Source: an uncultured candidate division Zixibacteria bacterium
Lineage (GTDB): Bacteria > Zixibacteria > MSB-5A5 > GN15 > FEB-12
NCBI GenBank assembly: GCA_963735035.1
Contig: CAVTJJ010000004.1
Span: forward strand, 96,001 to 160,000
Direction of reading: 5' to 3'
DNA length: 64,000 nucleotides
Each line of letters starts with the position of its first letter. The first letter of the stretch is position 1. Below the pieces are notes generated by a model. It was given only the letters and a program-made list of their open reading frames with translations. It made no database searches and was not told where the DNA came from. Of the stretch, positions 19,811 through 64,000 are shown piece by piece. A program made the position numbers and the translations under genes.

Positions 19811-19829
19811 ACTGAACTGGATCGACCTC

Positions 19830-19845
19830 AGTTTCACGTGAAACC
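19830..19845. promoter_or_regulatory. parS site
   Basis: aGTTTCACGTGAAACc matches the canonical bacterial parS palindrome; parAB is nearby. Confidence 0.9.
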
Positions 19846-19876
19846 GGGGCAGGTTGTTCGTATATTAGGTAAATTG

Positions 19877-20072: not shown

Positions 20073-20103
20073 AGTGATCGTGACATAGGTTGATGCATAT
20101 ATA

Positions 20104-22573: not shown

Positions 22574-22597
22574 ATCTTACGTAAGTCGATTTTTCCC

Positions 22598-22626
22598 TTG
22601 CGTATATCCGCCTGTCGGGGTACAAT
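22598..22626 (+). promoter_or_regulatory. Putative sigma70 promoter of parAB
   Basis: TTGCGT-17 bp-TACAAT just upstream of the parA RBS (AAGGAG). Confidence 0.5.
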
Positions 22627-22653
22627 CTGCACAGGACTTTCCATGACAAGGAG

Positions 22654-33594: not shown

Positions 33595-33631
33595 AAAGAT
33601 CTCCGTATGCTTTGACGACATGTTCTGTTAG

Positions 33632-35301: not shown

Positions 35302-35377
35302 GGTCAACCTCCCTTGGACTCTATTGTATCAAGATAAGTAAATTGACAATTCTGTCAACGCAAAAGAGGGCGACAAA

Positions 35378-38715: not shown

Positions 38716-38744
38716 TTGACAGTTATGGAAACTCCAGGTATATT
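38716..38744 (+). promoter_or_regulatory. Sigma70 promoter heading the surface-protein locus
   Basis: TTGACA-17 bp-TATATT; next CDS ~355 bp downstream. Confidence 0.6.
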
Positions 38745-39100
38745 CGACCCGGATGATAGGTGACAGTTCCACGTTAATAAGTTGATGGTTGCGAGAATCC
38801 GCACCAGATTGTACCAACGACTTTCCGATCCGATACACAAAACTAGAGAGTGCTGTGTACTCCGTCTCTCGTCGTGGCTGTGGGGGCCACAAGAGAGTTA
38901 CTGACAGGTTACTTCATTAGCGCTATTGGTAAAGAGTTTAGAAAAACTGTTGAGGAAGCCACGGGATATTGCTTTGGGCCGAATGGCCGACAATATCCTA
39001 TAGCGTCCTGTTGCTAAACTTTTGCCAGATAGCTGCTGTGAGCGGACCAATAGTGGTCTTGAGCGCCGAAGGCAGCCCAGTTCAAGGAGGTACCTTGGTA

Positions 39101-40198
39101 ATGCGGTTTTGTTCTGTCAGCAGACGAGCCCTGCTCGCAATCTCAATCCTTGTGTCAGTTCTACTCCTCGGTCTCGCATCAGAATCACAAGCTGTTGATC
39201 GCCTTAGAGTAACGGTCGGCGATACTACCGGGTACCCCGGCCAGGAAAACTCCGTCATAACGGTGTTTCTTACCAACACCTCGGATGCGATTAGAGCCTT
39301 TACGGTTCATCTGATCTTGAATCGTAACGACGTCGCAAATTTCCAAACCAATCTTGATACCGCCCTCGATACTACCTTCTGGCGCTGTGTAGGCTATGAT
39401 GGCCTCGGCAAATGCAACGACTCTGAAGCGGTTGACTCCCCGTACATCTATCCCTGGGATATGATGCACGTTGATTCCACCCCGGTCAACGTCGGCAGCC
39501 TGGATACCGTCGGGACGCTTATTTCCGGATGGGAATCGGTCGAGTCGAGGTCGGTGTACACCGGAGGCCTTGGGCTGGATATAAAGGTGACGGCCTACGC
39601 CTACCAGAATGGTTATCATCCGCCTCTCTATCCGCAGCAGGGCGGCGTTCTGTTCCGCCTCCGGGCGGATATTTTCCCGATCCCACCTGAGATGATAGAT
39701 CGGTCGGTGGGGATCCTGGTCGATGTCGGCAATAAGCCTTACTTCGGCTTTTCCACTCCCGCCGGCGTATCGATCGGCTGGATTCAGGTACCCAAACCAG
39801 ACACCAGCTACTATATGTGCACTGCTCCCGTTCCGCCACCCGGCAGCGGCTGCTACACCTGGACTAAGAAACACTCCTGGGAATGTCCCACCGGCGGATG
39901 TGATTCCGTGGGGATTGACACGATCTATGTGGCCACGCTCGATACCGCCAACGTGAAGATATACGATGGTCAGCTTCAGGTCCTGGACTTCATGTGCGGT
40001 GACTGCAACAACAGCGCCTCAGTTACCATTGGTGACATATCCGTATTGATCGATCATCTCTTTATAACCGGCGTGGCGCTCGATCCGATCGCACCCTGTG
40101 ATGCGAATTGCAGTGGTGACATTACCATCGGCGACGTGATGGCGTTGATTGACCGGCTGTTCGTTAGCGGTTCCCCATTGTGCTGTGAAGCCAGGTGA
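39101..40198 (+). CDS. Secreted cohesin-like + C-terminal dockerin-like protein
   Basis: AAGGAGG RBS, signal peptide; VTVGDTTGYPGQ..VITVFLTN cohesin-like start; GDCNNSASVTIGDISVLIDHLF...CDANCSGDITIGDVMALIDRLF duplicated Ca-loop/helix. Confidence 0.8.
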   Translation: MRFCSVSRRALLAISILVSVLLLGLASESQAVDRLRVTVGDTTGYPGQENSVITVFLTNTSDAIRAFTVHLILNRNDVANFQTNLDTALDTTFWRCVGYDGLGKCNDSEAVDSPYIYPWDMMHVDSTPVNVGSLDTVGTLISGWESVESRSVYTGGLGLDIKVTAYAYQNGYHPPLYPQQGGVLFRLRADIFPIPPEMIDRSVGILVDVGNKPYFGFSTPAGVSIGWIQVPKPDTSYYMCTAPVPPPGSGCYTWTKKHSWECPTGGCDSVGIDTIYVATLDTANVKIYDGQLQVLDFMCGDCNNSASVTIGDISVLIDHLFITGVALDPIAPCDANCSGDITIGDVMALIDRLFVSGSPLCCEAR

Positions 40199-40555
40199 TG
40201 GAACCATGAACCTGATTAGTCTTATCGTGACACTGACTTAATTCCAGACTAACAGGATTCTTAGATAGTTATGACAAGCTTTGGAAAGAATGACAACGGG
40301 CCTTGGGCAGGCCTGGAGTCAGTGAATAGAAAGAAAAAAGAAAGACGGAAAGGAAAGGAGGACATCCGAGAGAGGAATTTGCACGCGCTCTTAATCGTTT
40401 AGCTGTCGCTCTTGTTCTGCGACTCCGGTAAACGTGGCCGTCTGGCTCTCAGGTTACGCAGGCCGAGTCGAGGATCCCGAGGGGGGATAGAGAGAGGCTA
40501 GTTAGACATGATGTTAATGAATGTTAATGAATGCGATTCTTTTAGGAGAGCAAAA

Positions 40556-43231: not shown

Positions 43232-43250
43232 AGCCGTTTCATTTGGCTTG

Positions 43251-43283
43251 AACCCCCGGAGAGGTTAACCCTTTCCGGGGGTT
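43251..43283 (+). terminator. Strong hairpin / probable terminator
   Basis: gaacccccggaga...tttccgggggtt directly after the stop codon. Confidence 0.7.
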
Positions 43284-43407
43284 CCAATTCGAAGCACGAG
43301 GAGAATTGAGTATTGAGCGAAGGTTAAAGAGACAAAGAACAAAGACTCTTGAGTCAAATTTGAGGTTTGAAAGTGGCCATTTTGATGCGGAAAACAGCAG
43401 TTTTCGC

Positions 43408-43436
43408 GTGACAAAGCGGCTCTTTTTGTATATAAT
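43408..43436 (+). promoter_or_regulatory. Sigma70 promoter
   Basis: GTGACA-17 bp-TATAAT. Confidence 0.65.
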
Positions 43437-43442
43437 GTGGTG

Positions 43443-43783
43443 CTCTGTTGGGATGTACTTACCTGCTTCGCCGGGTGTTGCCATACTGCGGAAGGTTGCA
43501 TATACCTGCGGAAGAATGACAGACAACCTCACTATGTTGCTCGCCGCCAGGAAAAGGAGCGTCGGATAGCCTAACTGGTATCGATGAGTTAGACTGGCTG
43601 TTGAGAACATAAGTCCTTACCGTTTCTACTCTTAAACGGATGTTCTTCAGAGAGACTTACTCTGGGTAGAGCCGGACAAGAGTTCGCCAGGGAGAGGCGA
43701 ACCGACTTGCGGCATAGGACTGGTTCCGGTCTGATTATTGCTCGGAACTGGATTGGCTAAATGCCGACTTGGTAAGTCACGCT
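43443..43783 (+). ncRNA. Candidate structured 5' leader / cis-regulatory RNA (unassigned family)
   Basis: Lies between a promoter and the next ATG; six consecutive hairpins visible by eye (43566-43778). Confidence 0.4.
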
Positions 43784-46222: not shown

Positions 46223-46275
46223 GGCATGGATATACACTTTGATAACGATGTACTTGAAATAGGTTAGAGGTCGCG

Positions 46276-48967
46276 ATGCGATTTGCAAAAATCACTCTAT
46301 TGTGTCTCTTAGTCCTGGTGGCGCTGGCCGACGTCTCCAAAGCTCAGTACAGATGTTCCGATGTGGTTCAATCTGCGACGGAGAGTATTCGTCTGCCGTT
46401 CTTTTGTGGCAAGCCCGGTGACACCGTCCTCCTGCCGGTCATTCTGGATAACGACTCCATAGTGACACCTTTTCAATTCTTGATCCAGTTCGACACAACC
46501 TGGTTGACGCCGCTCTTAACCCTTGACTCCACCTGTATTACCCTGAGCGATAATGGGTTAGACTGTCTCCAATGGCATTACGTCTGGTATGCCGATTACC
46601 TAATTACCGGTCGTATGCTCAAGACCGTTACTACCGACGGACAATTCGGTCCGGTGATCGATACTGTTAACAGGTTCACCGTGACTCTGTTTGAAGGTAC
46701 GAAGAATGTCCTGGCTTGCAACGGGCTCCCGGAAGGCAGTTTTTTCGATTCGTTGCCTCCGGGAAATGACACGATCTTCTATATTAAGCTGAAGGTCAAG
46801 GAGACAATGCCACATTTGACATTGTCGCAATTCAATTTCTATGAGACTGACATCTATGAGGACGTCGATGTGAACGGCGTACCTACGCGCGTATATTACG
46901 GATGTAGCACCTCGCAGATGTCGGAGGCCTGGCGCCTAACGGATAACACGACATCCTCTCCCCAGATTTACCCGAAGACCACCCAGCCATACGCCTACTA
47001 CTTTCAGGCTGATACCGGCTGTGTGCCACCGGTACCGGTTGATCCCACTGTTGCGTTGACCGCCAACCCGACTACTATCACTACCAGTGGAACGACAACT
47101 CTGAGTTGGACTTCCACCAATTCCGACTCGGTAGTGGTGTCCACCAGTCTGGGCTCTCGTCTTACCGGGACCTCGCAGGGGCACGTCTCCGGGAGTATCG
47201 TTTGGACTCCTACCGCCGCCGGCACGTATGTTTTCGTGGCGCGCGCTTATGGAAAGAATGGCAATACGGCCCTGGGTGACGCCACCGTGATAGTAACCGG
47301 AGTCAATCCAGGCACTGGGCCTACGCTGACGGTAAGCGGGCTGCAATCGTCATACGATCAGGGCATGTCGGTCCAGTTCGACGTCATCGGAACGGGCAAC
47401 AGCAGTTCGCAAACAGTCACGATAACCGCCACCGGGCCGACCGGCTCGACTTTCGGTGGGGGAACGTCCGTGAACGGGTCCCAGTCCGGTCACCGGTACT
47501 TTCAACTGGGTTCCTAATCAGAGCGGGAATTTCACGGTGACCTTCACCGGGAATAGCACCAGTGGGACGACTATTCTGAATCTCTCGATAATAGTCAATG
47601 CACCGAAATTCGACCGTTTGTACTCCAGCTCCAAGACGGGTAATCGACCCGTGGGCGGACGTCCGGGCAAATCGGAGATCGCTTTCCCGATCGATCTGGT
47701 CAAACTGCAGGATGTTTTCGGCGTTCAGTTCGACATGACTTACCCCAACGATTTGGTCCGCGTCGATTCGTTTATGACCACGGTTCGCATTCCGGACTAT
47801 GTCGTTTATGACAATATCGGCACGACGCCTGGCACTATCCGGGTCGTGACGTTTGGCTTGAACAATGAGCCGGTGATCGATACCAATACGACGGCCATCC
47901 TGCATGCGATGATGACCATTGATTCGAGCGCTGTGCCGTGGACCGACCTCGTGATTCATCTCGCCAACGGCCGCGAATCGATCGATCCCGACCCGCTGGT
48001 AGGTTCCAAGGAAATGCTTTCCGACTCCGGCCTGGTAGTGGTCGACTCCGTCGGTGATGTCAACTTGGACCGATACATAGACGTGGCCGATGTGGTCAAT
48101 ATTGTGTCGTATGTTATCGGCACGCATACGCTGGTGCCGAGACAGTTCGAAGTCGCCGACGTGATCCGTAACGACTCGGTGAACGTTTTCGACCTGGTGG
48201 CCGATGTGAACATGATCTACGGTATCGCCCTGGCGCAACCGGCCCCGCCGACTCCGGACCAGACCGCCGTACTCACCGTCTCCTATAATGATATAGCGGG
48301 CGGATCATCGGACGTCCTCAAAGTCAGCTCCAAGATTTCTGAAGAAGTGGCGGGTGTGCAGCTTCAGTTGAACTATGATCCGACCACGGTCAGCCTGGGT
48401 ACTCCCCGCCTGACGCAGGACAACGCCGACTACGCCCTTAATTCGTACGACAACGGTCAGGGTCGTATGCGGATCCTGCTTTACAAGTTCGCGCCTTACA
48501 ATTCCGGCGAATTCATGCAGGCGGGTGACGTTCAACTGGTCGAGATTCCGATCACTGCCTATAAGAGCGTGAAGGCGAATGACAAGACCCGTATCCGCCT
48601 GACCGAAGCGCTTATGTCCACGACCGTGGCCGGGGCGCTGACGGTAGAGGGGATAGACAAGCCTCTGCCGCTGACTTTCTCTTTGAAGCAGAATTATCCG
48701 AATCCGTTTAATCCGACTACTACTATCAAATTCGAGGTTGGCGTTTCCGATGTGGGCGCTTTACAGCAGGATGTCAACCTCGACGTCTATAACGTCCTCG
48801 GTCAACATGTGAGCAGCTTGGCCGCCGGCAAATATTCCGCGGGCGCATACGAAGTTGTTTGGAACGCTACGAACAAGGATGGTCGTCGCGTTGCCAGTGG
48901 TGTGTATCTGTACCGACTAAACGTCGGCGGAGAGTCAATGACCAAGAAGATGCTATTCCTTAAGTAA
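46276..48967 (+). CDS. Secreted multi-cohesin/dockerin protein with T9SS/FlgD-type C-terminal domain (~896 aa; one +1 frameshift near 47480)
   Basis: ORFs 46276-47517 and 47537-48967 join by removing one C in gggtcccagt, giving GSSPVTGTFNWVPNQSGNFTVTF; GDVNLDRYIDVADVV..DVIRNDSVNVFDLV dockerin; NYPNPFNP. Confidence 0.85.
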
Positions 48968-48990
48968 TAGCTCTCGGAGGAATCGTTAGG

Positions 48991-51900
48991 ATGAATCGAT
49001 TCGTAAGAATTATCTTTGGTACCGCGCTGCTCTTGCTTTTGGCCGGCGCGGCCACCGCACAATCGTTCCCGCCGGTGCTAAATCCGATCGGGGCGCAGTC
49101 TGTCAATGAAAACCTGCTGTTGTCGTTTACCGTGTCGGCTTCCGACAGTGATTTGACCACGCCTGTGCTTACCACCTCGACTGCTTCCCACCGGCGCCGG
49201 GTTTACCGATAACCTCAACGGCACCGGCAGCTTCACCTGGACCCCGACTTATGCCCAGGCGGGTTCATATAATGTGACTTTCTACGCCACCGATGCTGTC
49301 ACAACCGACGTGGACTCGGAGTTGGTCGTAATCACAGTGAACGATGTCCCTCAGGCGCCGGTCGTGAGCAATATCCCGGACCAGACTGTCGCCGAAGGTT
49401 CAACTTTCACTACTGTCAATCTCGATAACTACGTCACGGACGCAGACAATAGTGCGGCGGAGATGACCTGGACTTACTCCGGTAACACGGCTCTGACGGT
49501 CAGCATCGATGTCAACCGGGTCGCCACAATTACGATTCCGGACGTCAACTGGAATGGTGCTGAGACGATTACGTTTACGGCGACTGATCCGGTCTGCTGT
49601 TCTCATCTGATCCGGCCACGTTCACGGTCACGGCGGTCAACGATGCACCGGTGGTAGCCGACATCCCGAATCAGACTGTCGCTGAAGGCTCGACTTTCAC
49701 GACGATCAGTCTTGATAGCTACGTGACTGACGTTGACAACACACCCTCTCAGATGACCTGGACTTACTCAGGAAACACCGTCACTTACCGTAAGCATCGA
49801 TGTCAACCGGATCGCTACGATCACGATTCCGGATGCGAACTGGAATGGCTCTGAGACGATCACTTTCACTGCTACCGATCCGGGCCTTCTGTTCTCATCC
49901 GACCCGGCGACGTTTACGGTCACAGCGGTCAATGACGCCCCGGTCGTAGCTGACATCCCGAACCAGACTATCGCCGAAGGCTCGACCTTTACGACGATCA
50001 GTCTCGACAGCTACGTTACGGACGTCGACAACACTTCGGCCCAGATGACCTGGACCTACTCCGGTAACACGGCGTTGACGGTGAGCATTGATGTCAACCG
50101 GGTGGCCACGATCACGATTCCGGACGCCAACTGGAACGGCGCCGAGACGATCACTTTCACCGCGACCGATCCGGGCTTGCTGTTCTGCTTCTGATCCGGC
50201 GACGTTTACGGTTACGGCAGTCAACAACGCTCCAGTGGTGGCCGACATCCCGAACCAGACTGTAGCTGAAGGATCGACCTTTACAACAATCAGTCTCGAC
50301 AGCTACGTGACCGATGTCGACAACACCGCGGCCCAGATGACCTGGACCTACTCCGGCAACACGGCTTTGACGGTCAGTATCGATGTCAACCGGGTGGCCA
50401 CGATCACGATTCCGGATGCCAACTGGAACGGCGCTGAAACGATCACATTTACTGCCACCGATCCGGGCCTGCTGTTCGCTTCTGACCCGGCCACGTTTAC
50501 GGTCACGGCCGTCAACAATGCACCGGTGGTAACTGACATTCCTGACCAGACTATCGCCGAAGGATCGACCTTCACGACCATCGCTCTCGATGGCTATGTC
50601 TCTGACGTTGACAACACCGACGCCCAGATGACCTGGACCTACTCCGGCAACACGGCTCTGACGGTCAGTATCGATGTCAACAGGGTCGCTACGATTACGA
50701 TCCTGGATGCGAACTGGAACGGCGCTGAGACGATCACGTTTACGGCGACTGATCCCGGCTTGCTCGCTTCGTCCGATGCCGCCATCTTCACGGTAACGGC
50801 GGTTAATGATGCGCCGGTAGTCACTGATATCCCGGATCAGACAATAGCAGAAGGCTCGACGTTCACGACTATCGCTCTCGACGGCTACGTCTCCGACGTT
50901 GACAACACTGATGCCCAGATGACCTGGACTTACTCTGGTAATACCGCTTTGACGGTCAGTATCAGTCCAACCAGAGTTGCCACGATCACGATGCCGGATG
51001 CCAACTGGAATGGCGCCGAGACGATCACGTTTACGGCCACCGATCCCGGATTGCTGTTTTCGTCCAACCCGGCCACGTTTACGGTCACAGCCGTCAATGA
51101 CGCTCCTGTAGTTTCAGATATCCCGAATCAGACTGTGGCTGAAGGCTCGACCTTTACGACTATAGCTCTTGATGGCTATGTCTCTGACGTTGACAACACC
51201 GACGCCCAGATGACGTGGACATACTCCGGCAATACGGCGTTGACCGTGAGCATTGATGTCAACCGGGTTGCCACGATCACAATCCCTGACGCCAACTGGA
51301 ATGGCGCCGAGACGATTACGTTCACAGCGACCGACCCTGGCCTGTTGTTCTCATCCAACCCGGCCACGTTCACGGTTACAGCGGTCAACGACGCCCCGGT
51401 GGTGGCTGACATCCCGAATCAGACGATAGCTGAAGGCTCGACCTTCACGACCATCGCTCTCGATGGCTATGTCTCTGACGTCGACAACACCGACGCTCAG
51501 ATGACCTGGACTTACTCCGGCAACACCGCGCTTACGGTTAGTATCGATGTCAACCGGATCGCTACGATTACTACCCCAGATGCCAACTGGAACGGCGCCG
51601 AGACGATTACTTTCACGGCCACTGATCCGGGTCTGCTGTTCTCATCGAACCCCGCGACGTTCACGGTTACGGCAGTAAACGACGCGCCGGTGGTAACTGA
51701 CATTCCTGACCAGACTATCGCCGAAGGTTCGACCTTTACGACTATAGCTCTTGATGGCTATGTCTCAGACGTCGACAACACACCTTCTCAGATGACCTGG
51801 ACCTACTCCGGCAATACGGCGCTTACGGTCAGTATAAGCCCTACTAGAGTAGCTACGATCACGATTCCGGACGCCAACTGGAACGGCGCCGAGACTATCA

Positions 51901-54900
51901 CGTTTACCGCGACCGACCCCGGATTGCTGTTCTCATCCGATCCGGCCACGTTCACGGTCACAGCCGTCAATAACGCTCCGGTAGTGGCTGATATCCCGAA
52001 TCAGACTATCGCTGAAGCATCGACCTTCACAACCATCGCTCTTGATGGCTATGTCTCAGACGTCGATAACACTGACGCCCAGATGGCGTGGACATACTCC
52101 GGCAATACCGCGTTGACCGTGAGCATTGATGTCAACCGGGTAGCTACGATTACTACCCCAGATGCCAACTGGAACGGCGCTGAAACGATTACGTTCACAG
52201 CAACTGACCCGGGCCTCTTGTTCGCTTTCGATCCGGCCACGTTTACGGTTACGTCAGTCAATGACGCACCAGTGGTAAGCGATATTCCGAATCAGACTGT
52301 GGCTGAAGGCGCGACATTCGCGACGATCAATCTTGACAGCTACGTAACCGACGTCGACAACACTCCTGCCCAGATGACGTGGACCTATTCCGGCAACACG
52401 GCGCTGACCGTGAGTATCAGTCCTCTCAGGGTTGCCACGATTACGATTCCAGACGTTAACTGGAACGGCAACGAGACGATTACATTTACTGCTACTGATC
52501 CCGGCCTCTTGTTCGCTTCCGATCCGGCCACGTTCACAGTCACGGCAGTAAACGACGCTCCTGTAGTTGCTGATATTCCGAACCACACTATCGCCGAAGG
52601 ATCGACCTTCACGACCATCGCTCTTGATGGCTATGTATCGGATGTTGACAACACCGACGCCCAGATGACCTGGACTTACTCTGGTAATACCGCTCTGACA
52701 GTCAGTATTGATGTCAACCGCGTAGCTACGATTACGATCCCAGATGCCAACTGGAACGGCGCTGAGACGATTACTTTCACAGCGACCGATCCGGGTCTGC
52801 TGTTCTCATCTGACCCTGCGACTTTCACAGTTACTGCAGTGAATGACGCCCCGGTGGTAGCGGATATTCCGAACCAGACTATCGCCGAAGGCTCGACCTT
52901 CACCACGATCAATCTTGATAGCTACGTGACCGATGCCGACAACACGCCTTCTCAGATGACCTGGACTTACTCCGGCAACACGGCGTTGACCGTGAGTATC
53001 GATGTCAACAGGATCGCCACAATTACGATTCCGGACGTCAACTGGAACGGCGCTGAAACGATTACGTTTACGGCGACCGATCCGGGCCTGCTGTTCTCGT
53101 CCAACCCGGCCACGTTCACGGTCACAGCCGTCAATAACGCGCCCGTAGTTTCAGATATCCCGAATCAGACTGTGGCTGAAGGCTCGACCTTTACGACTAT
53201 AGCTCTTGATGGCTATGTATCGGATGTCGACAACACACCTTCCCAGATGACTTGGACCTACTCTGGCAACACGGCTTTGACGGTCAGTATCAGTCCGACC
53301 AGAGTCGCCACGATCACGATACCTGACGCCAACTGGAACGGCGCTGAGACGATCACGTTTACGGCGACCGATCCGGGGTTGCTGGCCTCGTCCAATGCCG
53401 CCATCTTCACCGTAACTGCGGCTAATGATGCTCCAGTAGTCACTGATATCCCGGATCAGACAATAGCTGAAGGCTCGACGTTCACGACTATCGCTCTCGA
53501 CGGCTACGTCTCCGACGTTGACAACACTGATGCCCAGATGACCTGGACCTACTCAGGCAACACGGCTCTGACAGTCAGTATCGATGTCAACAGAGTCGCT
53601 ACGATTACGATTCCGGATATGAATTGGAACGGTGCTGAGACGATTACGTTTACGGCGACCGATCCCGGTCTGCTGTTCGCTTCCGATCCGGCCACGTTTA
53701 CGGTCACCCCGGTAAACGACCCGCCGGTCTTAGCGACTATTGGCCCCCGCTCTGTAACTGAAGGCGCCATTTTGAACTTCACGGCCACCGCAACGGATGT
53801 TGACGGAGAAACGCCCGTTCTGACAACTTCCTCGCTGCCGACCGGAGCTACCTTTGTCGATCACGCCAACGGTACCGGAACGTTTGACTTCACGCCCGGC
53901 TACCTGCAGTCGGGTGTGTACTCGGTGACGTTCTATGCCCGCGATGCGGCGCTATCAGTTGATTCCGAAGTGGTCAGCATCACGGTCATCGATGCCGGCA
54001 ACCAGCTTCCAGTGCTGGCGGCTATAGGCCCGCATTCGGTGCTTGAAGGTGCCAACTTGAGTTTCACGGTGTCAGCTACCGACATTGAAGATCCTTCCCC
54101 GGCCCTGACAACCTCGATCCTGCCCAGCCATGCCAGCTTTGTCGATAACGGCAACGGTACCGGCACCTTCAGCTTTACGCCGGCTTTCCAGCAGGCGGGT
54201 ATGTACCAGGTGACTTTCACCGCGACGGATGACAGTCTTGGGATCGATTTCGAAATCGTCACGATCACTGTAACAGACGCGGGCAATCAGGCTCCTGTCC
54301 TGGCGACCATCGGCCCGAGATCGGTGACCGAGGGTGCTACGCTGGCATTCGGCGTTTCAGCGACCGACCCGGATGGCACCACCCCGACCTTCACGACTTC
54401 TTCGTTGCCGACTAACGCCAGCTTCTTAGATAACGGCAACGGTACCGGCAATTTCAGCTTCTCGCCGAATTTCACTCAGGCCGGGACTTACAATATTACG
54501 TTCAGGGCCACCGATGGAGCGCTAGTTGACTCCGAAGTAGTAGTCGTTACAGTTGTCGACGCCGGTAATCGGGCGCCGGTTCTGGCAGCTATCGGACCGA
54601 AGACAGTCACCGAAGGCGCCAATTTGCATATAGTTCTGTCCGCCACTGATGCGGACGGTACGACACCGGTTCTTACTTCATCCACTCTGCCGCGTAATGC
54701 GACATTCATAGATAATGGCAATGGTACGGGAGACTTCGACTTCAATCCTGACTTTATCCAGTCGGGAATCCGTAGCGTGACCTTCTATGCCTCGGACGGA
54801 GTCGCGGTGGACTCCGAGGTAGTGTTTATCACTATCAACGATGCGGGTAATCAGCCGCCGGTCCTGGCGGCGATAGGCCCGCGGACTGTGACCGAGGGCA

Positions 54901-57900
54901 GTCAACTGACCTTTGGTGTCTCAGCCTCCGATCCTGAGGGGGCTACCCCCAGCCTCTCGACGTCAAGTCTCCCTACCAACGCCAGCTTCGTGGACAATCA
55001 CAACGGCACCGGCACGTTTACTTTCGATCCGAGCTACATCCAGTCCGGTACCTACAATATCACTTTTACCGCTCGCGATGACAGCACCGCCACCGATGTT
55101 GAGATCGTCACGATTACGGTCAATGACGCAGGCAATCAGACCCCGGTGCTGGCGGCGATCGGTCCGCATTCGGTCGACGAAAACGTTCTGGTGACCTTTG
55201 GAGTCTCAGCTACTGATGCGGACGCTACCATCCCCGCGCTGACTACTTCGACGCTTCCACTGAACGCCACCTTCGTAGACAATTTGAACGGGACCGGTAC
55301 GTTTTCCTTCACGCCGAGTTTCTTCCAGGCCGGAATCTACAACATTACGTTCCGTGCCTCGGACGGTATCGCGGTCGACAGCGAGATTGTGACTATCACC
55401 GTCAACAATATCAACCGCGCGCCGGTGCTTGACGCTATCGGCCCGAGAGCGGTCAATGAGAACGCGACGCTCGCCTTTACGGTTACGACAAGCGATCCCG
55501 ACCTGACAACTCCGATTCTCGCCGCTACCGGCCTGCCGGCCAATGCAACTTTTGTAGATAATCTCAACGGCACCGGCAGCTTCAGTTTCACGCCGTCGTT
55601 CTATCAGGCCGGAAGCTACAATGTCACGTTTACGTCGAGTGATGGCGCTCTGTCCGACTCTGAAATCGTAACCATTACGGTAAGTAATGTCAATCAGGCG
55701 CCAGTACTCGCGGCTATTGGTCCGCAGTTTGTCACCGAGGGTGCCAACCTGAGCGTGCTGGTTACGGCTACTGACGCCGACAGCACCGCTCTAACATTCA
55801 CCGCCGCGCCGCTGCCTCTGAACGGAACGTTCGTGGATCACGGTAACGGAACCGGAACGTTCAGTTTTAGTCCGAACTATCGCCAGTCCGGTATCGTTAG
55901 CCTGATGTTCACAGTCAGCGATGGTGTCGCTACTGACCAGGAGCTGGTGTTCGTGACGATCAACGAGGCGGGCAATCAACCGCCGGTGCTCGCGGCTATC
56001 GGGCCGCGATCCACCCAGGAAGGCCTGGTGCTCAATTTTACGGCTACCGCGACCGATCCCGAGGGTGTCGCGCCGGTCCTGACCACTTCGGCTTTGCCAC
56101 TGCACGCCAGCTTTGTCGACAACCATAATGGTACTGGCAGCTTCAGCTTCAGCCCCGACTTCACCCAGGCCGGCACTTACAATATTACTTTCACTGCCAC
56201 CGATGATTCCTCGGCCACTGATTTTGAAATCGTCACGATCACGGTTTCCGAATCCGGTAACCAGGCTCCAGTGCTCGCGGCCATAGGCGCCCGTAGCGCT
56301 ACTGAAGGCACACTGCTCAATTTCGCCGTCTCGGCCGCCGATCCCGATGCGACCACCCCGACCCTTACGGCTTCGCCTCTCCCCACCGGTGCTGCCTTTG
56401 TCGACAACGGCAACGGGACAGGTACTTTCAACTGGTCGCCGACATTCATACAGGCCGGTGTTTACCCGGTGACATTCATAGCATCTGACGGCACCCTGGC
56501 CGATTCCGAAGTCGTTCAGATTACGATCATCGAGGCCGGTAACCAGAGACCGGTGCTAGCGGCTATTGGCCCGCGTGGCACGACTGAATCAGTCAATTTG
56601 AACTTCTCCGTCTCGGCTTCCGATGCTGATGCCACCACGCCAACTCTTTCGGCCGGACCGCTTCCGACCGGTGCCACCTTCGTGGACAATGCTAACGGCT
56701 CCGGCACGTTCAACTGGACACCGGGATTTACTCAGTCGGGTATCTACAATGTGATCTTTGTCGCCTCGGACGGTCTTCTGGCCGACTCCGAGACGGTTCA
56801 AATAACGGTCGTTGAATCAGGCAATCAGGCCCCCATACTCGCCGCGATTGGCGCACACAGCACTACCGAAAACGTGCTCCTTAGTTTCACTGCGTCGGCT
56901 ACGGACGCCGATGCCACTATCCCGTTGCTCAGCGCGTCGCCGCTTCCGACCGGCGCCACTTTTGTCGACAACGGCAACGGCACTGGCAGCTTCAATTGGC
57001 AGCCGAGTTTCATTCAGTCGGGTGTTTACAATGTCACTTTTGTAGCCTCTGACGGTGTGGCGGCTGATTCCGAAGTGGTGCAGATCACAGTCATTGAGGC
57101 CGGCAACCAGATACCGGTGCTCGCCGCGATCGGCGCCCGCAGTACAACTGAAAGCGCGATCTTGAACTTCGCGGTCACGGCTTCAGATGTCGACGGCACG
57201 ACGCCGATTCTGACCGCGACACCGCTGCCGACCGGTGCGACTTACACCGACCATGGCAATGGTACAGCTACATTCAACTGGAGACCCGGCTTCACGCAGG
57301 CGGGAATATACAGTGTGACTTTTGTCGCTTCAGACGGCCTGCTTGCCGATTCCGAACTCGTGCAGATTACCGTCATCGATGCCGGAAACCAGAGACCCGC
57401 TCTGGTGAGTATCGGCGGCCAGGGGGCCACTGAAAACACGAACCTGAATTTCGACGTCTTTGCGACCGATGTGGACGCCACCACGCCTGCGCTTTCGGCT
57501 GGACCGCTGCCGACCGGCGCCACGTTCGTAGATCATGCTAACGGAACCGGTACCTTTGATTGGACGCCGGACTTCACTCAGGCTGGCATCTATACGATCA
57601 CATTCGTTGCTTCGGACGGTCTCCTGGCTGACTCCGAAGTGGTTCATATAACAGTGGCCGACGCCGGTAATCAGGCTCCCGTGCTCGCCGCGATCGGCGC
57701 CCGGAGCACCACCGAAAATGTCAGCCTCGCTTTTGGTGTGACGGCTGCCGACGCCGACGCCACCATCCCGTCGCTCAGCGCGTCGCCGCTGCCGACCGGC
57801 GCTACTTTTGTCGACAACGGCAATGGTACGGGCAGCTTCAACTGGCTGCCGACTTACACTCAGGCCGGTATCTACAGCGTATGGTTTGTCGCCTCAGACG

Positions 57901-60900
57901 GTGTTCTGGCTGATTCCGAACTCGTACAGATTACAGTCATCGAGGCCGGCAACCAGAGACCGGTGCTTGCCACGATCGGCTCACACAGCACGACTGAGAA
58001 CTTGAATCTGAACTTCGCTGTATCAGCCTCGGATGTTGATGCCACCACGTCGATCCTGACCGCATCACCGCTGCCGACCGGCGCGACTTACACCGACCAC
58101 GGCAACGGTACTGCTACCTTCGATTGGACTCCCGGTTTCACACAGGCGGGTATCTATAGCGTAACGTTTGTCGCTTCGGACGGTCTGTTGGCCGATTCCG
58201 AAGTCGTTCAGATTACGATTATTGAAGCCGGCAACCAGGCCCCGGTGCTGGCGGCTATCGGCGCTCGTAGTACCAGTGAAAGCACAAACCTGAATTTCGG
58301 CGTATCCGCGACCGATGTCGACGCTACCACGCCGACCCTGACCGCGTCACCGCTGCCGACCGGCGCGACTTTCGTGGACAATGCCAACGGTACTGGCACG
58401 TTCAACTGGACACCGGACTTCACTCAGGCCGGCATCTATACGATCACATTCGTTGCTTCAGACGGTTTGCTGGCCGATACCGAAGTGGTCCAGATTACGG
58501 TTCTCGAAGCCGGTAATCAGGCTCCTGTGCTTGCCGCGATAGGCGCTCGCAGCACCACCGAAAATGTCAGCCTCGCTTTTGGTGTGACGGCTACCGACGC
58601 CGACGCCACCATCCCGTTGCTGAGCGCTTCGTCGCTGCCGACCGGTGCTACTTTCGTAGACAACGGCAATGGTACGGGCAGCTTCAACTGGCTGCCGACT
58701 TATACTCAGGCCGGTATCTACAGCGTGACGTTTGTCGCATCGGACGGCGTCCTTGCTGATTCGGAACTCGTGCAGATTACCGTCATCGAGGCCGGCAACC
58801 AGAGACCGGTGCTTGCCACGATCGGCTCACACAGCACGACTGAGAACATCAATCTGAACTTCGCGGTCTCTGCGTCTGATGTCGACGCCACCACGCCGAT
58901 ACTAACCGCATCACCGCTGCCGACTGGCGCTACATACACCGACCACGGCAACGGTACTGCTACCTTCGATTGGACTCCCGGTTTCACACAGGCGGGTATC
59001 TATAGCGTAACGTTTGTCGCTTCGGACGGAGTATTGGCCGATTCCGAAGTCGTTCAGATTACGATTATTGAAGCCGGCAACCAGGCCCCGGTGCTCGCCG
59101 CGATAGGCGCGCGGGGTACGACTGAGAATATCAATCTCAACTTCATCGTTTCGGCGTCCGATCTCGACGCCACCACGCCGATCCTGACTGCGTCACCGCT
59201 TCCGACCGGCGCCACCTTCATAGACAACGCCAACGGCACCGGCACGTTCAACTGGACACCCGGCTTCACCCAGGCCGGACTATACAATGTCACGTTTGTG
59301 GCGTCTGATGGTTTGCTCGCCGATACCGAAGTGGTCCAGATAACGGTCACCGATGCGGGCAACCAGACGCCGGTCCTGGCGGCGATCGGCGCCCGTGGCA
59401 CGAACGAACAGGTCAATTTGAATTTCAGCGTCTCGGCGACCGATGCCGACGCTACGATTCCGACCCTTTCGGCCGCACCGCTTCCGACCGGTGCTACTTT
59501 CACCAACAATGCTAACGGTACTGGAACATTCAACTGGACACCGAGCTATGTACAGGCCGGTATATACGATATCACGTTTGTCGCCTCAGACGGTGTCGCC
59601 GCCGACTCCGAAGTTGTGCGGATCACAGTCACCGATGCCGGCAACCAGATCCCGGTGCTGGCTGCAATTGGCGCTCGTAGCATAGCTGAAAACGCCGCTC
59701 TGAACTTCACGGTGTCGGCGACCGATGCCGACCTTACGACTCCGGTCTTATCGGCTAACTCACTTCCGATTGGCGCGAGTTTTGTCGATCATGCCAACGG
59801 CACGGCGACATTCAACTGGACCCCGGACTTCACCCAGGCCGGTGTGCACAACGTTCTGTTCATAGCTTCCGATGGCATCTCGGCTGACAGCGAACTAGTC
59901 GCTATCACGGTTACTAATACCAACCGGGTTCCGGTCGCCAACGCCGGTTCGGATCAGTTTGACATCCCGCAGGGGCATCTGGTACAGCTCGACGGCGCCG
60001 GATCCTCCGATGCCGACGGCGAGTTACTCACCTATGCCTGGACGCAAGTTGCCGGAGCGGCCGTTACTCTTTCGAGTGCGACGAATGTGGCTCCGACCTT
60101 TACACCCAATGCGCTCGGAACTTACCGGTTCCAGTTGATCGCCTTCGACGGCATCGACCACTCGCTTCCGGATACGGTGGCTATCGCAGTGGTAAACGGT
60201 GCTCCGCCGCGCTCTGTGACGGACTTGACGATCAGAATCGTCAGTGACGCCCTCGTGTTGACCTGGTCGCCCGTGTTGGTTGATACGGCCGGTCTCGCGA
60301 CCACGATCGACCACTACGAGATTCACCGTGGTACGTCGGCGTACTTCACGCCCGGCCCGGCGAATTTGATCGGCACTTCGAACGCTTTGACTGCTACCTT
60401 TACAGATAACAACATCGGCGGCGCTAACGTCGTGGGCGACACCCTGACGCAGTACTTCTACGTGGTGGTGGCCATCGACTCATGGACGAATGCCTCCGGT
60501 GTTTCGAACCGGGTCGGCGAATACGACTATCCGATCATTATCACGTCGTCTACCGACTACAACCTGGTTTGCATCCCGTTCACGGGTACCGGCATCACGA
60601 ATGCCGATCAGTTGATATCGGCGCTTGGCACCGGACGGGTATTGACCGTCAACCGGTACATTGCAACGTCGCAGAGCTTCCAGTCGCGCTATGCGGCCGG
60701 GTTCGGAATCAATTTCGCAGTGGTACCGGGGGGAGTGTATCAGGTGAATGCGGCGTCGGCGACAATCTTCTCCGTCGCCGGAGGTGTCCCGGCTCCGGGA
60801 ACCATAACCTACCCGTTGGTAACGACCGCTTCGACAGATTTCAATTACGTATCAATACCGTTCGAGCGCGAGGCTAATTTCCTCGTGGCGCAGGATGTCA

Positions 60901-61064
60901 TTAACAACATCCCCGGCGTGCTCAACACTCTAAACAATTTTGTGGCGGGTTCGCAGAGCTACCAGTCACGGTTTGCAGTCGGCTTTGGCACCAACTTCGT
61001 GGTGCGCGCCGGCAAGCCGTACCAGGCGAACGCCGCGACCTCGGGCACTTTCCCGATTCAGTAG
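48991..61064 (+). CDS. Giant repetitive surface protein (~4,023 aa): 1+22 cadherin/putative-Ig repeats, 15 tandem 97-aa repeats, PKD-like, FN3-like, duplicated C-terminal domain; four indels in the 5' part
   Basis: GGAGG RBS and signal peptide at 48991; the repeat consensus restores frame at ~49180(+1), ~49591(-1), ~49781(+1), ~50186(+1), a net +2 that matches the frame of ORF 50088-61064. Confidence 0.9.
49348..53714 (+). repeat. Intragenic tandem repeat, 15 x 291 bp (97 aa)
   Basis: NDAPVV.DIP.QT.AEGSTFTTI.LD.YV.DVDN...NWNGAETITFTATDPG recurs every 291 bp. Confidence 0.92.
53715..59921 (+). repeat. Intragenic tandem repeat, 22 x ~282 bp (~94 aa)
   Basis: GNQ.PVLAAIG.....E...L.F.V.A.D.D...LP.GA.FVDNGNGTG.F.W.P...QAG.Y...F.ASDG...DSE unit. 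Confidence 0.9.
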
Positions 61065-61120
61065 AGGAATGACCCATGGCTATGAAAAGATTTGAGCTGA
61101 ACATAAACGGAGGTACCGCT

Positions 61121-64000
61121 GTGCGGTTATCTAATAGGATGGTTGGGATAACCTACCGACTCGGGCTGGCTCTGGTGCTGGTTTTGGGGTTGACCGGCTC
61201 TGGGTTCGCTCAGGGGTCGATCTTTGGAACAGTATCCAATTCCAACGCGACTACCCCGGCGAACGGCGAGATTCTCTTTGTCGGATATTTGGACAACACC
61301 GACGAAGAAATCCGGATTGAGAGCGCCGACGGCGCCGGCTATGACGCCGGCAACTGGTTCGACGACTTCCAGAACTATCTCACGGAAGCCCCGGGCAACC
61401 CGTACGATTATCATTTCTATAATGTCGCCAACAACCAGGGCTTTCAGCTTTCCGGATTGATCCCGAACAACTCGTTCCAGCAGGAAAACGTGACTCTTGC
61501 CTCGGTCACCTGGCCGGTTGTGCCGCTTGGTCTGAGCGGCGTCACCGTTTCCAATACCAGCGTGGTGCTGAACTGGACGCGTGTCGCCGGGCTCACCTAT
61601 CACGTTTACCGTAGACTGGCCATCTCCAATGGGTCGTTCTTCCGAATTGACAATACGGCCGGATTGCTGACCAACCCCGGCGTGGCGAACAATTTCTTTG
61701 TAGATAACACCGTCAGCGGCGGCAATTCATACGCTTACATTATTGTAGCTCAGGATCCGTCGGGCAATTTCTCGCCGCATTCGCCGGTCGTTACGGTCAA
61801 TACCGCTGCAGGCGACGCCCCGATTATCACCTCGATAGACCCAACTACCGGTTCGGCTGTCGGCGGAACTCTGGTGACCGTCAACGGTTCAGGTTTCGAT
61901 CCGGCGGGTACGACCGTGCATTTTGGCTTGAACAGCGCCGCCGCCACGGTGATCAGCCCCTTCCAATTGACCGCCGTTACTCCGGCCGGTTCGGTAGGAG
62001 CTGCCATGGATGTGGCCGTGGTAAACACGTCCTCAGGTCTCGTATCCAATACTTTGTTGGGCGCTTTCATCTACGCCGCCAACGCGGCGCCGGTGTTGGC
62101 GACCATTGGCCCTCGCAGTGTGGTGGAAGGTTCCCTCCTGACCTTTACGGCTGCAGCTACCGATGTGGACGGGGTCACTCCGGTAATGACTGCATTAACG
62201 CTTCCTACGGGCGCCACCTATGTCAACAACGGCAACGGCACCGGGACTTTCGCCTGGACGCCGACCTTCACCCAGGCGGGTGTCTATAATGTGACTTTTT
62301 ACGCCACTGACGGCGCGGTGCCGTCAGCAATCGATTCCGAAGCGGTGGTTATTACCGTGACTGATTTTGGCAATCATGCGCCGGTGGTAACTCCGGTAGC
62401 CGAACAAACCGTGGCGGAAGCTCAAACACTGGCGTTTCAGATTACGGCCACCGACTCCGATCTCGATCCGATCACTCTGGTAGCCACTAATCTTCCGACT
62501 AACGCGACTTTCCTGGATAACGCCAATGGCAACGGCAACTTCAGTTTCACTCCCAACTTTATCCAGGCCGGCATTTACGATGTGACCTTCACGGCGACTG
62601 ACCCGGGGCTGGGTGTCGGTACCACGATCGTCCATATCGTTGTCACGAACGTGAATCAGCTCCCCGTTATGATGCCGATCGGCGGGCAGGCCGGTACCGA
62701 AAACGTGTTAATGACTTTCGGGGTTACGGCAAGCGATCCCGACGGAGCTATACCGCTTCTGTCTACGTCCGTCCTCCCCGGTACCGCCGTGTTTGTGGAT
62801 AACCTAAATGGCACGGGATCATTCAGCTGGACACCCAATTTCGCCGGCGCCGGCTCATACAATGTGACTTTCCGGGCCACTGATGCTGCTTTCCCAACCG
62901 CAGTAGATTCGCAAATCGTTACGATAGTCATCGCCGACGCCGGCAATCAGGCGCCAGTTCTGGCCGCTATTGGTCCGCACACGGTAGCTGAGGGTGTCGC
63001 CCTTGATTTCACTGTCACCGCGACCGATTTGGATGCAACCATACCGACATTGCGCGCCGAGAATCTACCGGCCAACGCCACCCTGCTTGACCATGCCGAC
63101 GGCACGGCCTCATTCAGCTTCACACCGAATTACACTCAGGCCGGATCTTACAACGTACTGTTCATCGCTGACGACGGCTTGTTGGCCGACTCGGAGACTG
63201 TCGCGATTACCGTGACCGAGAGCGGCAACGTGGCGCCGGTCTTTGATCCCATAGGCGACTTCACTCTCAATGAGGGTGATTCACTGGTCATTCCGGTGCG
63301 CGTGACCGATCCCGACGGCGGCGCGACTTTCCCGTCTTTGTCGGTAAGCACCACGCTATATCCTTTCACGTTCACCGACAATCATGACGGCACCGGCCGT
63401 CTGGTATACCGCTCGAATTTCTATAGCTCCGGTGTCGATACCATAAACTTCTTCGCCACCGATCACGGCACGCCGCAGCGCACGACTACGGCGATTTCGG
63501 CCGTGACGACGGTCGAAGTCAACCAACCGCCACTGTTCGTGAATATCGCCCCGCTGGGGGCGGTGGTGGATGATTCCCTGGTCTTCATAGTTCAGGCGAG
63601 CGATTCCACCGACCCGGTCGCCAGTCATAGAGTCATTCTGTCGTCTCTAAGCTTGCCGGCCAATGCGACGTTTGTTGATAACGGCGACGGCACCGGCCGG
63701 TTTGCCTTCCATCCCACCGCCACTCAGGTTGGCTTGAATCAGGCCACGTTCCTGGGTGTCGATCAGGGGACCCCGCAGCTTTCTGCCACCATGACCGTAG
63801 ATATAACTGTCGTGACGGAGAATCAGCCACCGGTGCTGACCCCGATCGGCCCGCGAGTGATTACCGAAGGACAGACGCTGACGATCAACCTTTCGGGATC
63901 CGACCCGGACGGCCCAGCTCCGGCGCTTCTGGCCGTCGGGGCCCCGGTAGGCTCCACTTTCGTGGACAACGGTAACGGCACCGCCGTGTTCACCTTCACG
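61121..64000 (+). CDS. Second giant secreted Ig-repeat protein (partial): unknown N-terminal domain, FN3-like, IPT/TIG, cadherin/putative-Ig repeats
   Basis: Not in the ORF track (no stop). GGAGG RBS then GTG at 61121; signal peptide; PIITSIDPTTGSAVGGTLVTVNGSGF (IPT/TIG); DNGNGT repeats in the same frame to the window end. Confidence 0.88.
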   Translation, partial: MRLSNRMVGITYRLGLALVLVLGLTGSGFAQGSIFGTVSNSNATTPANGEILFVGYLDNTDEEIRIESADGAGYDAGNWFDDFQNYLTEAPGNPYDYHFYNVANNQGFQLSGLIPNNSFQQENVTLASVTWPVVPLGLSGVTVSNTSVVLNWTRVAGLTYHVYRRLAISNGSFFRIDNTAGLLTNPGVANNFFVDNTVSGGNSYAYIIVAQDPSGNFSPHSPVVTVNTAAGDAPIITSIDPTTGSAVGGTLVTVNGSGFDPAGTTVHFGLNSAAATVISPFQLTAVTPAGSVGAAMDVAVVNTSSGLVSNTLLGAFIYAANAAPVLATIGPRSVVEGSLLTFTAAATDVDGVTPVMTALTLPTGATYVNNGNGTGTFAWTPTFTQAGVYNVTFYATDGAVPSAIDSEAVVITVTDFGNHAPVVTPVAEQTVAEAQTLAFQITATDSDLDPITLVATNLPTNATFLDNANGNGNFSFTPNFIQAGIYDVTFTATDPGLGVGTTIVHIVVTNVNQLPVMMPIGGQAGTENVLMTFGVTASDPDGAIPLLSTSVLPGTAVFVDNLNGTGSFSWTPNFAGAGSYNVTFRATDAAFPTAVDSQIVTIVIADAGNQAPVLAAIGPHTVAEGVALDFTVTATDLDATIPTLRAENLPANATLLDHADGTASFSFTPNYTQAGSYNVLFIADDGLLADSETVAITVTESGNVAPVFDPIGDFTLNEGDSLVIPVRVTDPDGGATFPSLSVSTTLYPFTFTDNHDGTGRLVYRSNFYSSGVDTINFFATDHGTPQRTTTAISAVTTVEVNQPPLFVNIAPLGAVVDDSLVFIVQASDSTDPVASHRVILSSLSLPANATFVDNGDGTGRFAFHPTATQVGLNQATFLGVDQGTPQLSATMTVDITVVTENQPPVLTPIGPRVITEGQTLTINLSGSDPDGPAPALLAVGAPVGSTFVDNGNGTAVFTFT

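Follow-up and report, generated by a model that had tools for sequence, protein, structure and literature searches.

A candidate cohesin-dockerin docking locus with type IX-sorted scaffold proteins in an uncultured Zixibacterium

Genes and modules of the locus

The DNA described here, called the window, is a stretch of 64,000 nucleotides (C4:96001-160000, C4 being contig CAVTJJ010000004.1) from an uncultured Zixibacterium, a member of the Fibrobacteres-Chlorobi-Bacteroidetes (FCB) group, whose genome was assembled to 3.6 Mb in 6 contigs with a completeness of 96.9%. From 39101 to 64000 the + strand carries the co-directional genes of the secreted proteins g1, g2, g3, g4/5, g6 and g7 (Table 1), and this locus, in which cohesin and dockerin modules recur, is analyzed here as a candidate surface docking system. 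A cohesin is a nine-stranded beta jelly-roll, and a type I dockerin has a three-helix fold made of two segments of about 22 residues, each with a calcium loop (D or N at positions 1, 3 and 5, D at position 12) and a helix. Two classes of dockerin are distinguished below, class G, as in g2 and g3, and class A, as in g1. From what family profiles and predicted structures indicate, the cohesin and dockerin modules of the locus are genuine. The locus extends past the window with the rest of g7 and then g8 (1233 aa), both dockerin-terminated; 3' of g8 there follow, in this order, a 305-aa open reading frame (ORF), a gene of glycoside hydrolase (GH) family 35 and a gamma-glutamyltranspeptidase gene.

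The best-resolved protein is g3. Its AlphaFold model, obtained from 44 orthologues (pLDDT 84, pTM 0.41), was compared by VIA-align with 48,161 representative solved chains, such that the domain called CohC was found to have the cohesin fold (Z 18.9, root-mean-square deviation (rmsd) 1.8 over 140 aa, with 5nrk_A), as was the N-terminal one, CohN (Z 18.2, with 6kgc_A), and the class G module the dockerin fold (Z 11.2 with 5m2o_B; Z 11.1, rmsd 1.5 over 62 of 62 aa, with 2ccl_B). Residues 178-370 resemble immunoglobulin-like (Ig) domains of cadherin and SraP at about Z 12, and the sorting domain gives Z 10.9 with the C-terminal domain of PorU. A Foldseek search with the whole g3 model returned generic multi-Ig chains only; it was VIA-align that resolved the domains. 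Pfam recognized Cohesin (41.8 bits, the gathering score of PF00963 being 24.1 bits), Big_9, He_PIG, FlgD_ig and Por_Secre_tail in g3; Dockerin_1 (PF00404, gathering score 22.9 bits) did not match its dockerin despite the fold, and Cohesin did not match its X domain, a homologue, by hhalign (93.9%), of the third domain of g5. As read from the g3 sequence, the last D of the class G loops stands at position 13, not 12. None of the calcium-loop residues D533, N535, N537, D545, D570, N572, D574 and D582 varies among the 44 orthologues, and in all 44 the junction between cohesin and dockerin, from G519 to G532, measures 14 residues.

Over the stretch formed by the two Ig domains, the cohesin, the dockerin, X and the tail, g2 is a paralogue of g3 (hhalign of family profiles, probability 100%, E 1.4e-86, 648 columns). 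Its Pfam scores are below threshold (Cohesin 17 bits, Dockerin_1 13.9 bits), and it matches Protocadherin-15 at E 1e-7. The 305-aa ORF that lies after g8 (window-equivalent 70887-71804) is a paralogue of the g2 N-terminal domain; tblastn aligns it with the g2 orthologue of a relative of the same genus at 49% identity over 234 aa, and it has no Pfam or NCBIfam family.

The first gene, g1, encodes a candidate adaptor that joins a cohesin to a dockerin and is devoid of a sorting tail. Its N-terminal domain was identified by fold search only: by sequence it has no Pfam match, and hhalign relates it to the cohesins of the locus with a probability of 30% or less. The model is of low confidence (pLDDT 60); nevertheless, its best 13 structural matches in VIA-align are all cohesins (Z 12.5-10.4), with unrelated chains scoring Z 7.6 or below. 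The g1 tail has the dockerin fold (Z 10.4, rmsd 1.9 over 65 aa, with 4fl4_A), the g1 family profile finds dockerins of the PDB at E 6e-4, and Dockerin_1 scores 21 bits in hmmscan and 24.9 bits in the genome scan, on either side of the gathering score.

The next two ORFs, g4 and g5, are by their sequence a single gene, which an apparent frame change of one base near 47480-47520 divides: the Ig-repeat motif runs on past this point in a different frame, and the counterpart is a single ORF of 847-962 aa in 10 of 10 relatives. The N-terminal domain of g4 finds cohesins of the PDB (profile E 0.003-0.007; hhalign 92-93%) and reaches 18.5 bits with Pfam Cohesin, below the gathering score. For the domain after the dockerin, Pfam Cohesin gives 20.6 bits when the domain is taken alone and 28.7 bits when the entire g5 is scanned; the dockerin itself falls slightly below the Dockerin_1 gathering score. 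The domain directly before this dockerin has no Pfam or PDB match and an hhalign probability of 19-27%.

Model TIGR04183 recognizes a type A sorting domain of type IX secretion (T9SS) at the C-terminal end of g2 (45.3 bits), g3 (41.3 bits) and g5 (31.6 bits), the cut-off being 23 bits. The genome has the corresponding machinery: the sortase PorU (NF033707) was found with 667.4 bits against a cut-off of 420 and covers model positions 3-1095 of 1095, SprA_N scored 74.5 bits and PorV 48.9 bits in the genome scan, these three being the T9SS parts searched for. Por_Secre_tail occurs at 44 sites genome-wide. There are also three secretins, which suggest a type II secretion or pilus system and give no evidence of export.

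After the scaffold genes come the giant Ig-repeat proteins. The reading of g6 is broken by at least four apparent frame changes at about 49190-50090, at single-base differences from adjacent repeat copies; Tandem Repeats Finder (TRF) delimits in it a 291-bp unit repeated 14.9 times (49371-53707) and a 282-bp unit repeated 12.4 times (56249-59732). Its C-terminus has a PKD domain (K319L-like, in the last 500 aa) and two repeats of about 95 aa, for which the best Atlas score, 0.84, is a lead only; over the C-terminal 520 aa, two relatives show identities of 73% and 59%. Pfam finds TIG, He_PIG, Big_9 and cadherin-like domains in g7, whose last 75 aa hold a class A dockerin (Dockerin_1, 24.2 bits against the cut-off of 22.9; C4:161612-161770 in the genome scan). 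One relative encodes the giant protein in a single dockerin-terminated ORF of 2278 aa; here it is split into g6 and g7. The C-terminal dockerin of g8 is not matched by Pfam Dockerin_1, and the protein has no family in Pfam or NCBIfam; a profile search of the PDB gave only a weak pilin match (E 0.053), and in the Atlas g8 falls in a hypothetical cluster with a dockerin in 32% of its members. Four g8 paralogues of 1235-1263 aa, 58-87% identical and three of them in tandem, are encoded at C4:941983-954558 and C6:503015-506779; they end in the same dockerin variant as g8, and none has a known family.

The original prediction, made from the letters of the sequence alone, had six co-directional genes of secreted proteins at this place. 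Direction and secretion hold; g4 and g5 are one gene and g7 leaves the window. That the modules would model as cohesins and dockerins, and that four proteins would carry both, was borne out by the folds of g1 and g3 and by the profile homology of g2 to g3, and in part for g4/5. The further claim of a cohesin-like domain directly before the dockerin is right for g3, by its fold, and for g2, by homology; in g4/5 the domain at this position has no Pfam or PDB match. Three sorting tails, on g2, g3 and g4/5, and two giant Ig-repeat proteins after the scaffold genes, g6 and g7, were found as predicted. So was the lack of catalytic domains: in the Pfam and NCBIfam scans no catalytic family, GH or carbohydrate-binding module (CBM) appeared in any locus protein at E <= 0.01.

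Table 1. Features of the locus, in window coordinates
Feature	Position	Strand	Description
Promoter-like site	38716..38744	+	TTGACA, 17 nt, TATATT; 11/12; 5' of g1, beginning where the original prediction has its first position; weak lead
g1, 365 aa	39101-40198	+	Signal-peptide-like N-terminus, cohesin, C-terminal dockerin
g1 divergent cohesin with insertions, about 260 aa	39182-39985	+	Structural match, residues 31-293
g1 class A dockerin	39989-40186	+	Residues 297-362
g2, about 891 aa	40556-43231	+	Signal peptide, N-domain of ~200 aa, two cadherin-like Ig domains, cohesin, dockerin, X, tail
g2 cohesin with Cys-rich insertion	41792-42472	+	Homology to g3
g2 class G dockerin	42473-42676	+	Homology to g3
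g2 T9SS type A sorting domain	42995-43219	+	TIGR04183
g3, 812 aa	43784-46222	+	Signal peptide, two cohesins, two Ig domains, dockerin, X, T9SS tail
g3 CohN cohesin	43865-44344	+	Residues 28-187
g3 CohC cohesin	44885-45367	+	Residues 368-528
g3 class G dockerin	45356-45577	+	Residues 525-598
g3 X domain	45590-45925	+	~110 aa between dockerin and tail
g3 T9SS sorting domain	45965-46219	+	Residues 717-812
g4/5	46276..48967	+	ORFs 46276-47517 (g4) and 47537-48967 (g5)
g4/5 N-terminal cohesin	46393-47061	+	Profile evidence
g4/5 cohesin-like domain, unverified	47654-48061	+	Directly before dockerin; Ig domains lie between the N-terminal cohesin and this domain
g4/5 dockerin	48047-48256	+	Dockerin_1, 21.5 bits
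g4/5 cohesin-like domain homologous to X	48254-48676	+	After dockerin; Pfam, hhalign
g4/5 T9SS sorting domain	48695-48952	+	TIGR04183
g6	48991..61064	+	Giant Ig/cadherin-like repeat protein, ~4020 aa on read-through, signal peptide
g7	61076 to window end 64000, on to window-equivalent 65803	+	1575 aa, first 975 in window

Cohesins, dockerins and gene order beyond the locus

Hidden Markov models (HMMs) of the g3 and g1 families were run against every stop-to-stop ORF of 80 aa or more, 16,524 in total. A class A dockerin was found in 84 ORFs (69 at E <= 1e-8) and in 77 of them is no more than 25 aa away from the ORF end, so that the dockerin-bearing proteins encoded elsewhere, which the original prediction had supposed, do exist. 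The class G dockerin occurs in 10 ORFs, seven of which have the sorting tail too, and a cohesin match in 14, eight of them with the tail; small cohesin-plus-tail proteins of 279 and 420 aa are among these 14. The Pfam Dockerin_1 scan of the genome returned 17 sites only at E <= 0.01. With the CohC HMM, a class G dockerin follows the cohesin directly in six of seven matching ORFs, the seventh being a 337-aa ORF on a 16-kb contig with a marginal E of 1e-3; class G dockerins also occur with no adjacent cohesin (C6_2_967, C6_1200_2141). The ending of most class A dockerins is almost the same, with cysteines that are conserved and, as the last two residues, a pair of the C-L type. Subtypes that seemed visible by eye were abandoned, as single-linkage clustering at 50% identity merged 80 modules into one group. 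Contig C3 has eleven ORFs with this ending in a span of 33 kb (C3:238001-272000).

Outside the locus, 94 ORFs with a cohesin or dockerin were scanned with Pfam. Peptidase families were assigned to 17 of them (S8 in four, C10, C1, M43 and M28 in two each, and M4, M1, M64, M14 and Trypsin_2 in one each), Amidase_3 to one and no family to 34; GH and CBM families were assigned to none at E <= 1e-4. The remaining ORFs of the set show beta-helix (right-handed, Beta_helix or NosD, in seven ORFs and with no activity assigned), FG-GAP, SBBP, TSP_3, Fib_succ_major, WD40, PKD and FN3 domains. Two of the peptidases, one of family S8 (C6:33826-36264) and one M43-like (C6:500440-502314), combine a PKD domain, a cohesin-like match and a C-terminal dockerin; from their sequences, the arrangement of a cohesin before a dockerin occurs on enzymes too. 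Contigs end inside cohesin or class G dockerin genes at C1:1-3022 and C6:2-2141, and at C4:1034001-1038000 there are four overlapping ORFs of the same strand with a dockerin on each, which suggests assembly breaks and single-base frame errors in the repeated cohesin and dockerin modules.

For the comparison of gene order we fetched 10 genomes of the same genus, family and order with the best-placed g3 orthologues. The order g2, g3, g4/5 and giant Ig-repeat gene is kept in 10 of 10, and conservation of the cluster in relatives, on which the original prediction depended, is borne out for these Zixibacteria. Upstream there is a dockerin-terminated g1-like ORF in all 10, nine of which were aligned as a family. 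The giant protein ends in a dockerin in seven of the 10, the contigs of the other three stopping inside the giant gene, and five have a homologue of g8. The GH35 gene comes next in three genomes, in two of which the gamma-glutamyltranspeptidase gene follows it.

In the sample of the phylum, all 121 genomes, the source genome included, had a match with g3 at E <= 1e-20. Among the matches listed, about 43 genomes have near full-length matches and about 17 a form without the N-terminal cohesin; many other matches span only residues 514-812 (dockerin, X and tail) or 370-812 and end frames of 2000-3900 aa. The search for related loci was dominated by the common T9SS-tail motif, and full-length g3 relatives were found at 2 of 79 loci. 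Outside the phylum, the part from cohesin through dockerin and X to the tail is 29-30% identical in metagenome-assembled genomes (MAGs) of Ignavibacteria and Calditrichaeota (tblastn); in these proteins Pfam recognized the tail only. A phmmer search of 1.84 billion representatives with g3 residues 368-714 gave 1001 matches at E <= 1e-3, 463 at E <= 1e-10 and 70 at E <= 1e-30. In the five genomes in which the dockerin tails of g1 and g8 were compared with each other, their identity was 35, 83, 67, 42 and 55%; between genomes, it averages 37% for g1 with g1 and 32% for g1 with g8. The likeness within a genome hints at a concerted evolution toward one shared partner, in a small sample to which the source genome would be an exception.

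As for the surroundings, the origin-proximal housekeeping set yidC, mnmE, mnmG (gidA), rsmG (gidB), parA and parB, followed by an M23 peptidase gene, lies at 16702-24266 on the + strand, and the surface-protein cluster is therefore about 15 kb from the partition genes. A 493-aa ORF (26680-28161, +) that overlaps the end of an ORF for a MoxR-type AAA ATPase (25901-26908) fuses an N6/N4 DNA methylase domain to a staphylococcal-nuclease domain. Just upstream of the locus and on the opposite strand, two genes (31969-33621 and 33721-35307, both -) encode secreted proteins with T9SS sorting tails; FG-GAP repeats are present in one of them, and no cohesin or dockerin was seen in either. A 379-aa ORF without a Pfam family (37267-38406, +) adjoins the 5' side of g1 and has a lipoprotein-like N-terminus and repeated motifs of the D-G-D-G type. 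The scan for promoters and terminators did no better than with shuffled sequences, with eight promoter-like sites against 7.9 expected.

A proposed surface docking platform and other readings

We favor, with a confidence somewhat better than even, the reading that this Gram-negative Zixibacterium has a docking system of cohesins and dockerins on its outer surface and that the locus is its main scaffoldin-type cluster. Its anatomy is that of a scaffoldin cluster: three surface-sorted, non-catalytic cohesin proteins, an adaptor-like protein, dockerin-ended candidate cargo and a large set of dockerin-tagged secreted proteins outside. In such a platform g2, g3 and g4/5 would be exported by Sec, would then pass the outer membrane through the T9SS by means of their C-terminal sorting domains and, if the Porphyromonas-type T9SS is a proper guide, would be kept on the surface. 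The one to three cohesins of each scaffold would hold dockerin-ended proteins in a calcium-dependent manner. The candidate cargo from the locus comprises the giant cadherin-like stalk of g7, g8 and the adaptor g1, to which some 80 secreted proteins encoded elsewhere, many of them peptidases, may be added. The internal class G dockerin beside the anchor of g2 and g3 may be the scaffolds' own plug, so that scaffolds could be linked to each other or to other cohesin proteins. Every binding step and the specific pairings of cohesins and dockerins are what we infer from these elements.

Several points weigh against this platform. The cohesins, in about 14 ORFs plus g4/5, face 84 ORFs with a class A dockerin, a count that depends on a lineage model, since the HMM comes from 10 sequences and Pfam passes 17 sites. 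There is no scaffold with long tandem arrays of cohesins, and the class A dockerin proteins have no T9SS tail with which to cross the outer membrane. The dockerins of g1 and g8 in the source genome share an identity of 35% only, and no specific cohesin-dockerin pair is proposed. Nor does g6, which has neither a dockerin nor a sorting tail, fit readily into the system. Finally, the genomes with conserved gene order were the best g3 matches and were not picked at random.

An unlikely reading, to be taken seriously all the same, takes up the head-to-tail chaining of the original prediction: g1, g2, g3 and g4/5 would bind one another in a lattice or fiber, a structural surface layer or the base of an adhesin whose purpose would not be to recruit enzymes. 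It agrees with the presence of both modules in four proteins of the locus, with a rigid junction of the same length in every g3 orthologue, and with a locus free of enzymes in which giant cadherin-like proteins come next. The class G dockerin, which follows CohC in six of seven ORFs and is also found alone, fits a cognate pair binding in trans, and many of the 1001 relatives obtained with the tail-less cohesin-dockerin-X query have the match about 100 aa from the C-terminus of proteins of 600-3600 aa. However, with its pTM the g3 model gives no confident arrangement of the domains with respect to each other, sockets are also required for the 84 class A dockerin proteins, and a good part of the cohesins in the genome is encoded in the locus. 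As 17 of the 94 cohesin or dockerin ORFs elsewhere are peptidases, a general docking platform, arranged like a cellulosome but devoid of cellulases, is better suited to the data than a purely structural or adhesive assembly; we prefer it to the lattice on account of its scaffoldin-cluster anatomy, present here with a different anchor, cargo and architecture.

It is also conceivable, and in our judgment rather doubtful, that the rigid cassette of cohesin, dockerin and X directly before the T9SS tail is a self-linking module: with their tails anchored, adjacent molecules would plug into one another at the base, and T9SS cargo would be tied into a calcium-dependent network on the surface. Besides g2, g3 and g4/5, many giant Zixibacteria proteins have the cassette, and tblastn finds it in the Ignavibacteria and Calditrichaeota MAGs too; the stalk adhesins and the roughly 80 tail-less dockerin-tagged enzymes would then hang on the network. 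Possibly, the tail-less dockerin proteins bind a cohesin in the periplasm and leave with it via the T9SS.

We regard as improbable that the pair is a structural didomain, the cohesin packing in cis on the adjoining dockerin, clasped in the manner of an X module, as a calcium-stabilized rigid spacer near the anchor that would have no binding partner in trans. The junction of 14 residues, fixed in length and conserved in sequence, would be expected of it, and the peptidases C6_33826 and C6_500440 have a cohesin-like match directly before their C-terminal dockerin; yet class G dockerins without a neighboring cohesin occur in C6_2_967, in C6_1200_2141 and in the giant proteins of the phylum that match g3 at 514-812 only, the second cohesin of g3 is far from any dockerin, and g7 and g8 carry a dockerin and no cohesin. 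Hardly to be expected either is that the class A module is mainly a tag read by an export or sorting machinery other than cohesins, the locus proteins being ordinary T9SS adhesins: its position near the end of 77 of the 84 ORFs, the near-identical endings with their cysteines and C-L-type motif, the missing T9SS tails and the excess over cohesins are what a tag might show, but the module of g1 adopts the fold of a dockerin, two calcium loops included, the g7 copy is above the Pfam Dockerin_1 cut-off, and genuine cohesins are present, with a surface-sorting tail on 8 of the 14 cohesin ORFs. In cellulosome producers, too, dockerins far outnumber cohesins.

Known systems and meaning for the Zixibacteria

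Among the closest parallels to the docking platform are the scaffoldins and anchors of clostridia (CipA, OlpA and OlpC of Clostridium thermocellum; ScaA, ScaB and ScaC of A. cellulolyticus), whose cohesin and dockerin folds are the same (PDB 3ul4, 4dh2, 5nrk, 4uyp and 2ccl; Z 17-19 for cohesin, Z 11 for dockerin). Adaptors of two modules, cargo with C-terminal dockerins, a few surface-tethered cohesin proteins and clustered scaffold genes are common to both. Unlike the clostridia, the host here is a Gram-negative member of the FCB group, and the anchor is a T9SS sorting domain instead of a surface-layer homology (SLH) or sortase one. The scaffolds have one to three cohesins, whereas those of clostridia have long arrays, and the dockerin comes rigidly after a cohesin, followed by X and the sorting tail. 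No CBM was found in the set of the Zixibacterium and no GH in its 94 ORFs, and the candidate cargo, unlike that of clostridia, is made up of peptidases, giant Ig-repeat proteins and proteins with beta-helices or propellers. Neither a dockerin-borne GH nor a scaffoldin with a cellulose-binding module, by which a cellulosome is recognized, occurs among the locus proteins and the 94 ORFs.

Cohesin and dockerin modules outside cellulose degradation are not without precedent. One protein of Archaeoglobus fulgidus carries both a cohesin and a dockerin, and in Clostridium perfringens the modules join toxins. The g3 model matches such non-cellulosomal cohesins with Z 17.5 (2xdh, A. fulgidus), 15.3 (2vo8) and 13.4 (2w1n), the latter two from glycosidases of C. 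perfringens, as is 2o4e. Anaerobic methanotrophic (ANME) archaea encode proteins in which one dockerin is combined with as many as five cohesins, according to the available part of the account (PMC9012536). In what is accessible of the sources on these three groups, hosts and anchors are others, and there is neither a T9SS nor a conserved locus of such composition.

Two systems of the FCB group are also close to the one proposed. 'Ca. Stygibacter' of the Cloacimonadota was predicted, in silico only, to form a cellulosome-like complex; the available part of that report describes a scaffoldin with a conserved C-terminal surface-attachment domain and dockerins on peptidases (S8, C25) and other enzymes, which are shared features, and also a single scaffoldin of 3755 aa with tandem cohesins and CBM2/CBM3, and dockerin enzymes that include GH18 and GH57 (PMC8542988). 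Compared with this portion of the report, the Zixibacterium has several small dockerin-bearing scaffolds, no CBM, a conserved locus of many genes and giant Ig-repeat cargo. In the Chlorobiota, the C-terminal dockerin of a giant Ig-repeat protein was modeled to bind the cohesin of its neighbor, and for this pair, Cag_2037/Cag_2038, which like g7 and the scaffold genes places a giant dockerin protein beside a cohesin gene, a surface tether or bridge is proposed in the part of the preprint at hand, the cohesin protein being a repeats-in-toxin (RTX) protein of type I secretion (bioRxiv 10.64898/2026.03.19.712371). As far as that part goes, the Chlorobiota pair comes without a T9SS-anchored scaffold, a cohesin-dockerin-X-tail cassette or a large dockerin-tagged set. 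Cohesin-dockerin surface systems of the FCB group are, then, already in print in silico for Cloacimonadota and Chlorobiota, and the present one is less new than the original prediction assumed; a text search of the published literature found no cohesin-dockerin or T9SS system of Zixibacteria.

To our knowledge, cohesin-dockerin assembly is known almost only from Gram-positive degraders of cellulose. Here the same modules appear rebuilt on the T9SS pathway in an uncultured phylum, and the dockerin-tagged enzymes to which Pfam assigns a family are peptidases, not cellulases. Since Pfam misses most of the modules, with 17 sites against 84 ORFs, such systems are probably under-counted in metagenomes. 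A self-linking network, if true, would be an undescribed principle of outer-surface organization across the FCB group. If the binding proposed for the docking platform is true, Gram-negative hosts for surface display would gain new pairs of cohesin and dockerin that are orthogonal; Zixibacteria and their relatives would present proteases and giant adhesins on a modular scaffold that depends on calcium and stands at the cell surface, which would bear on how these sediment bacteria attach to particulate protein and digest it.

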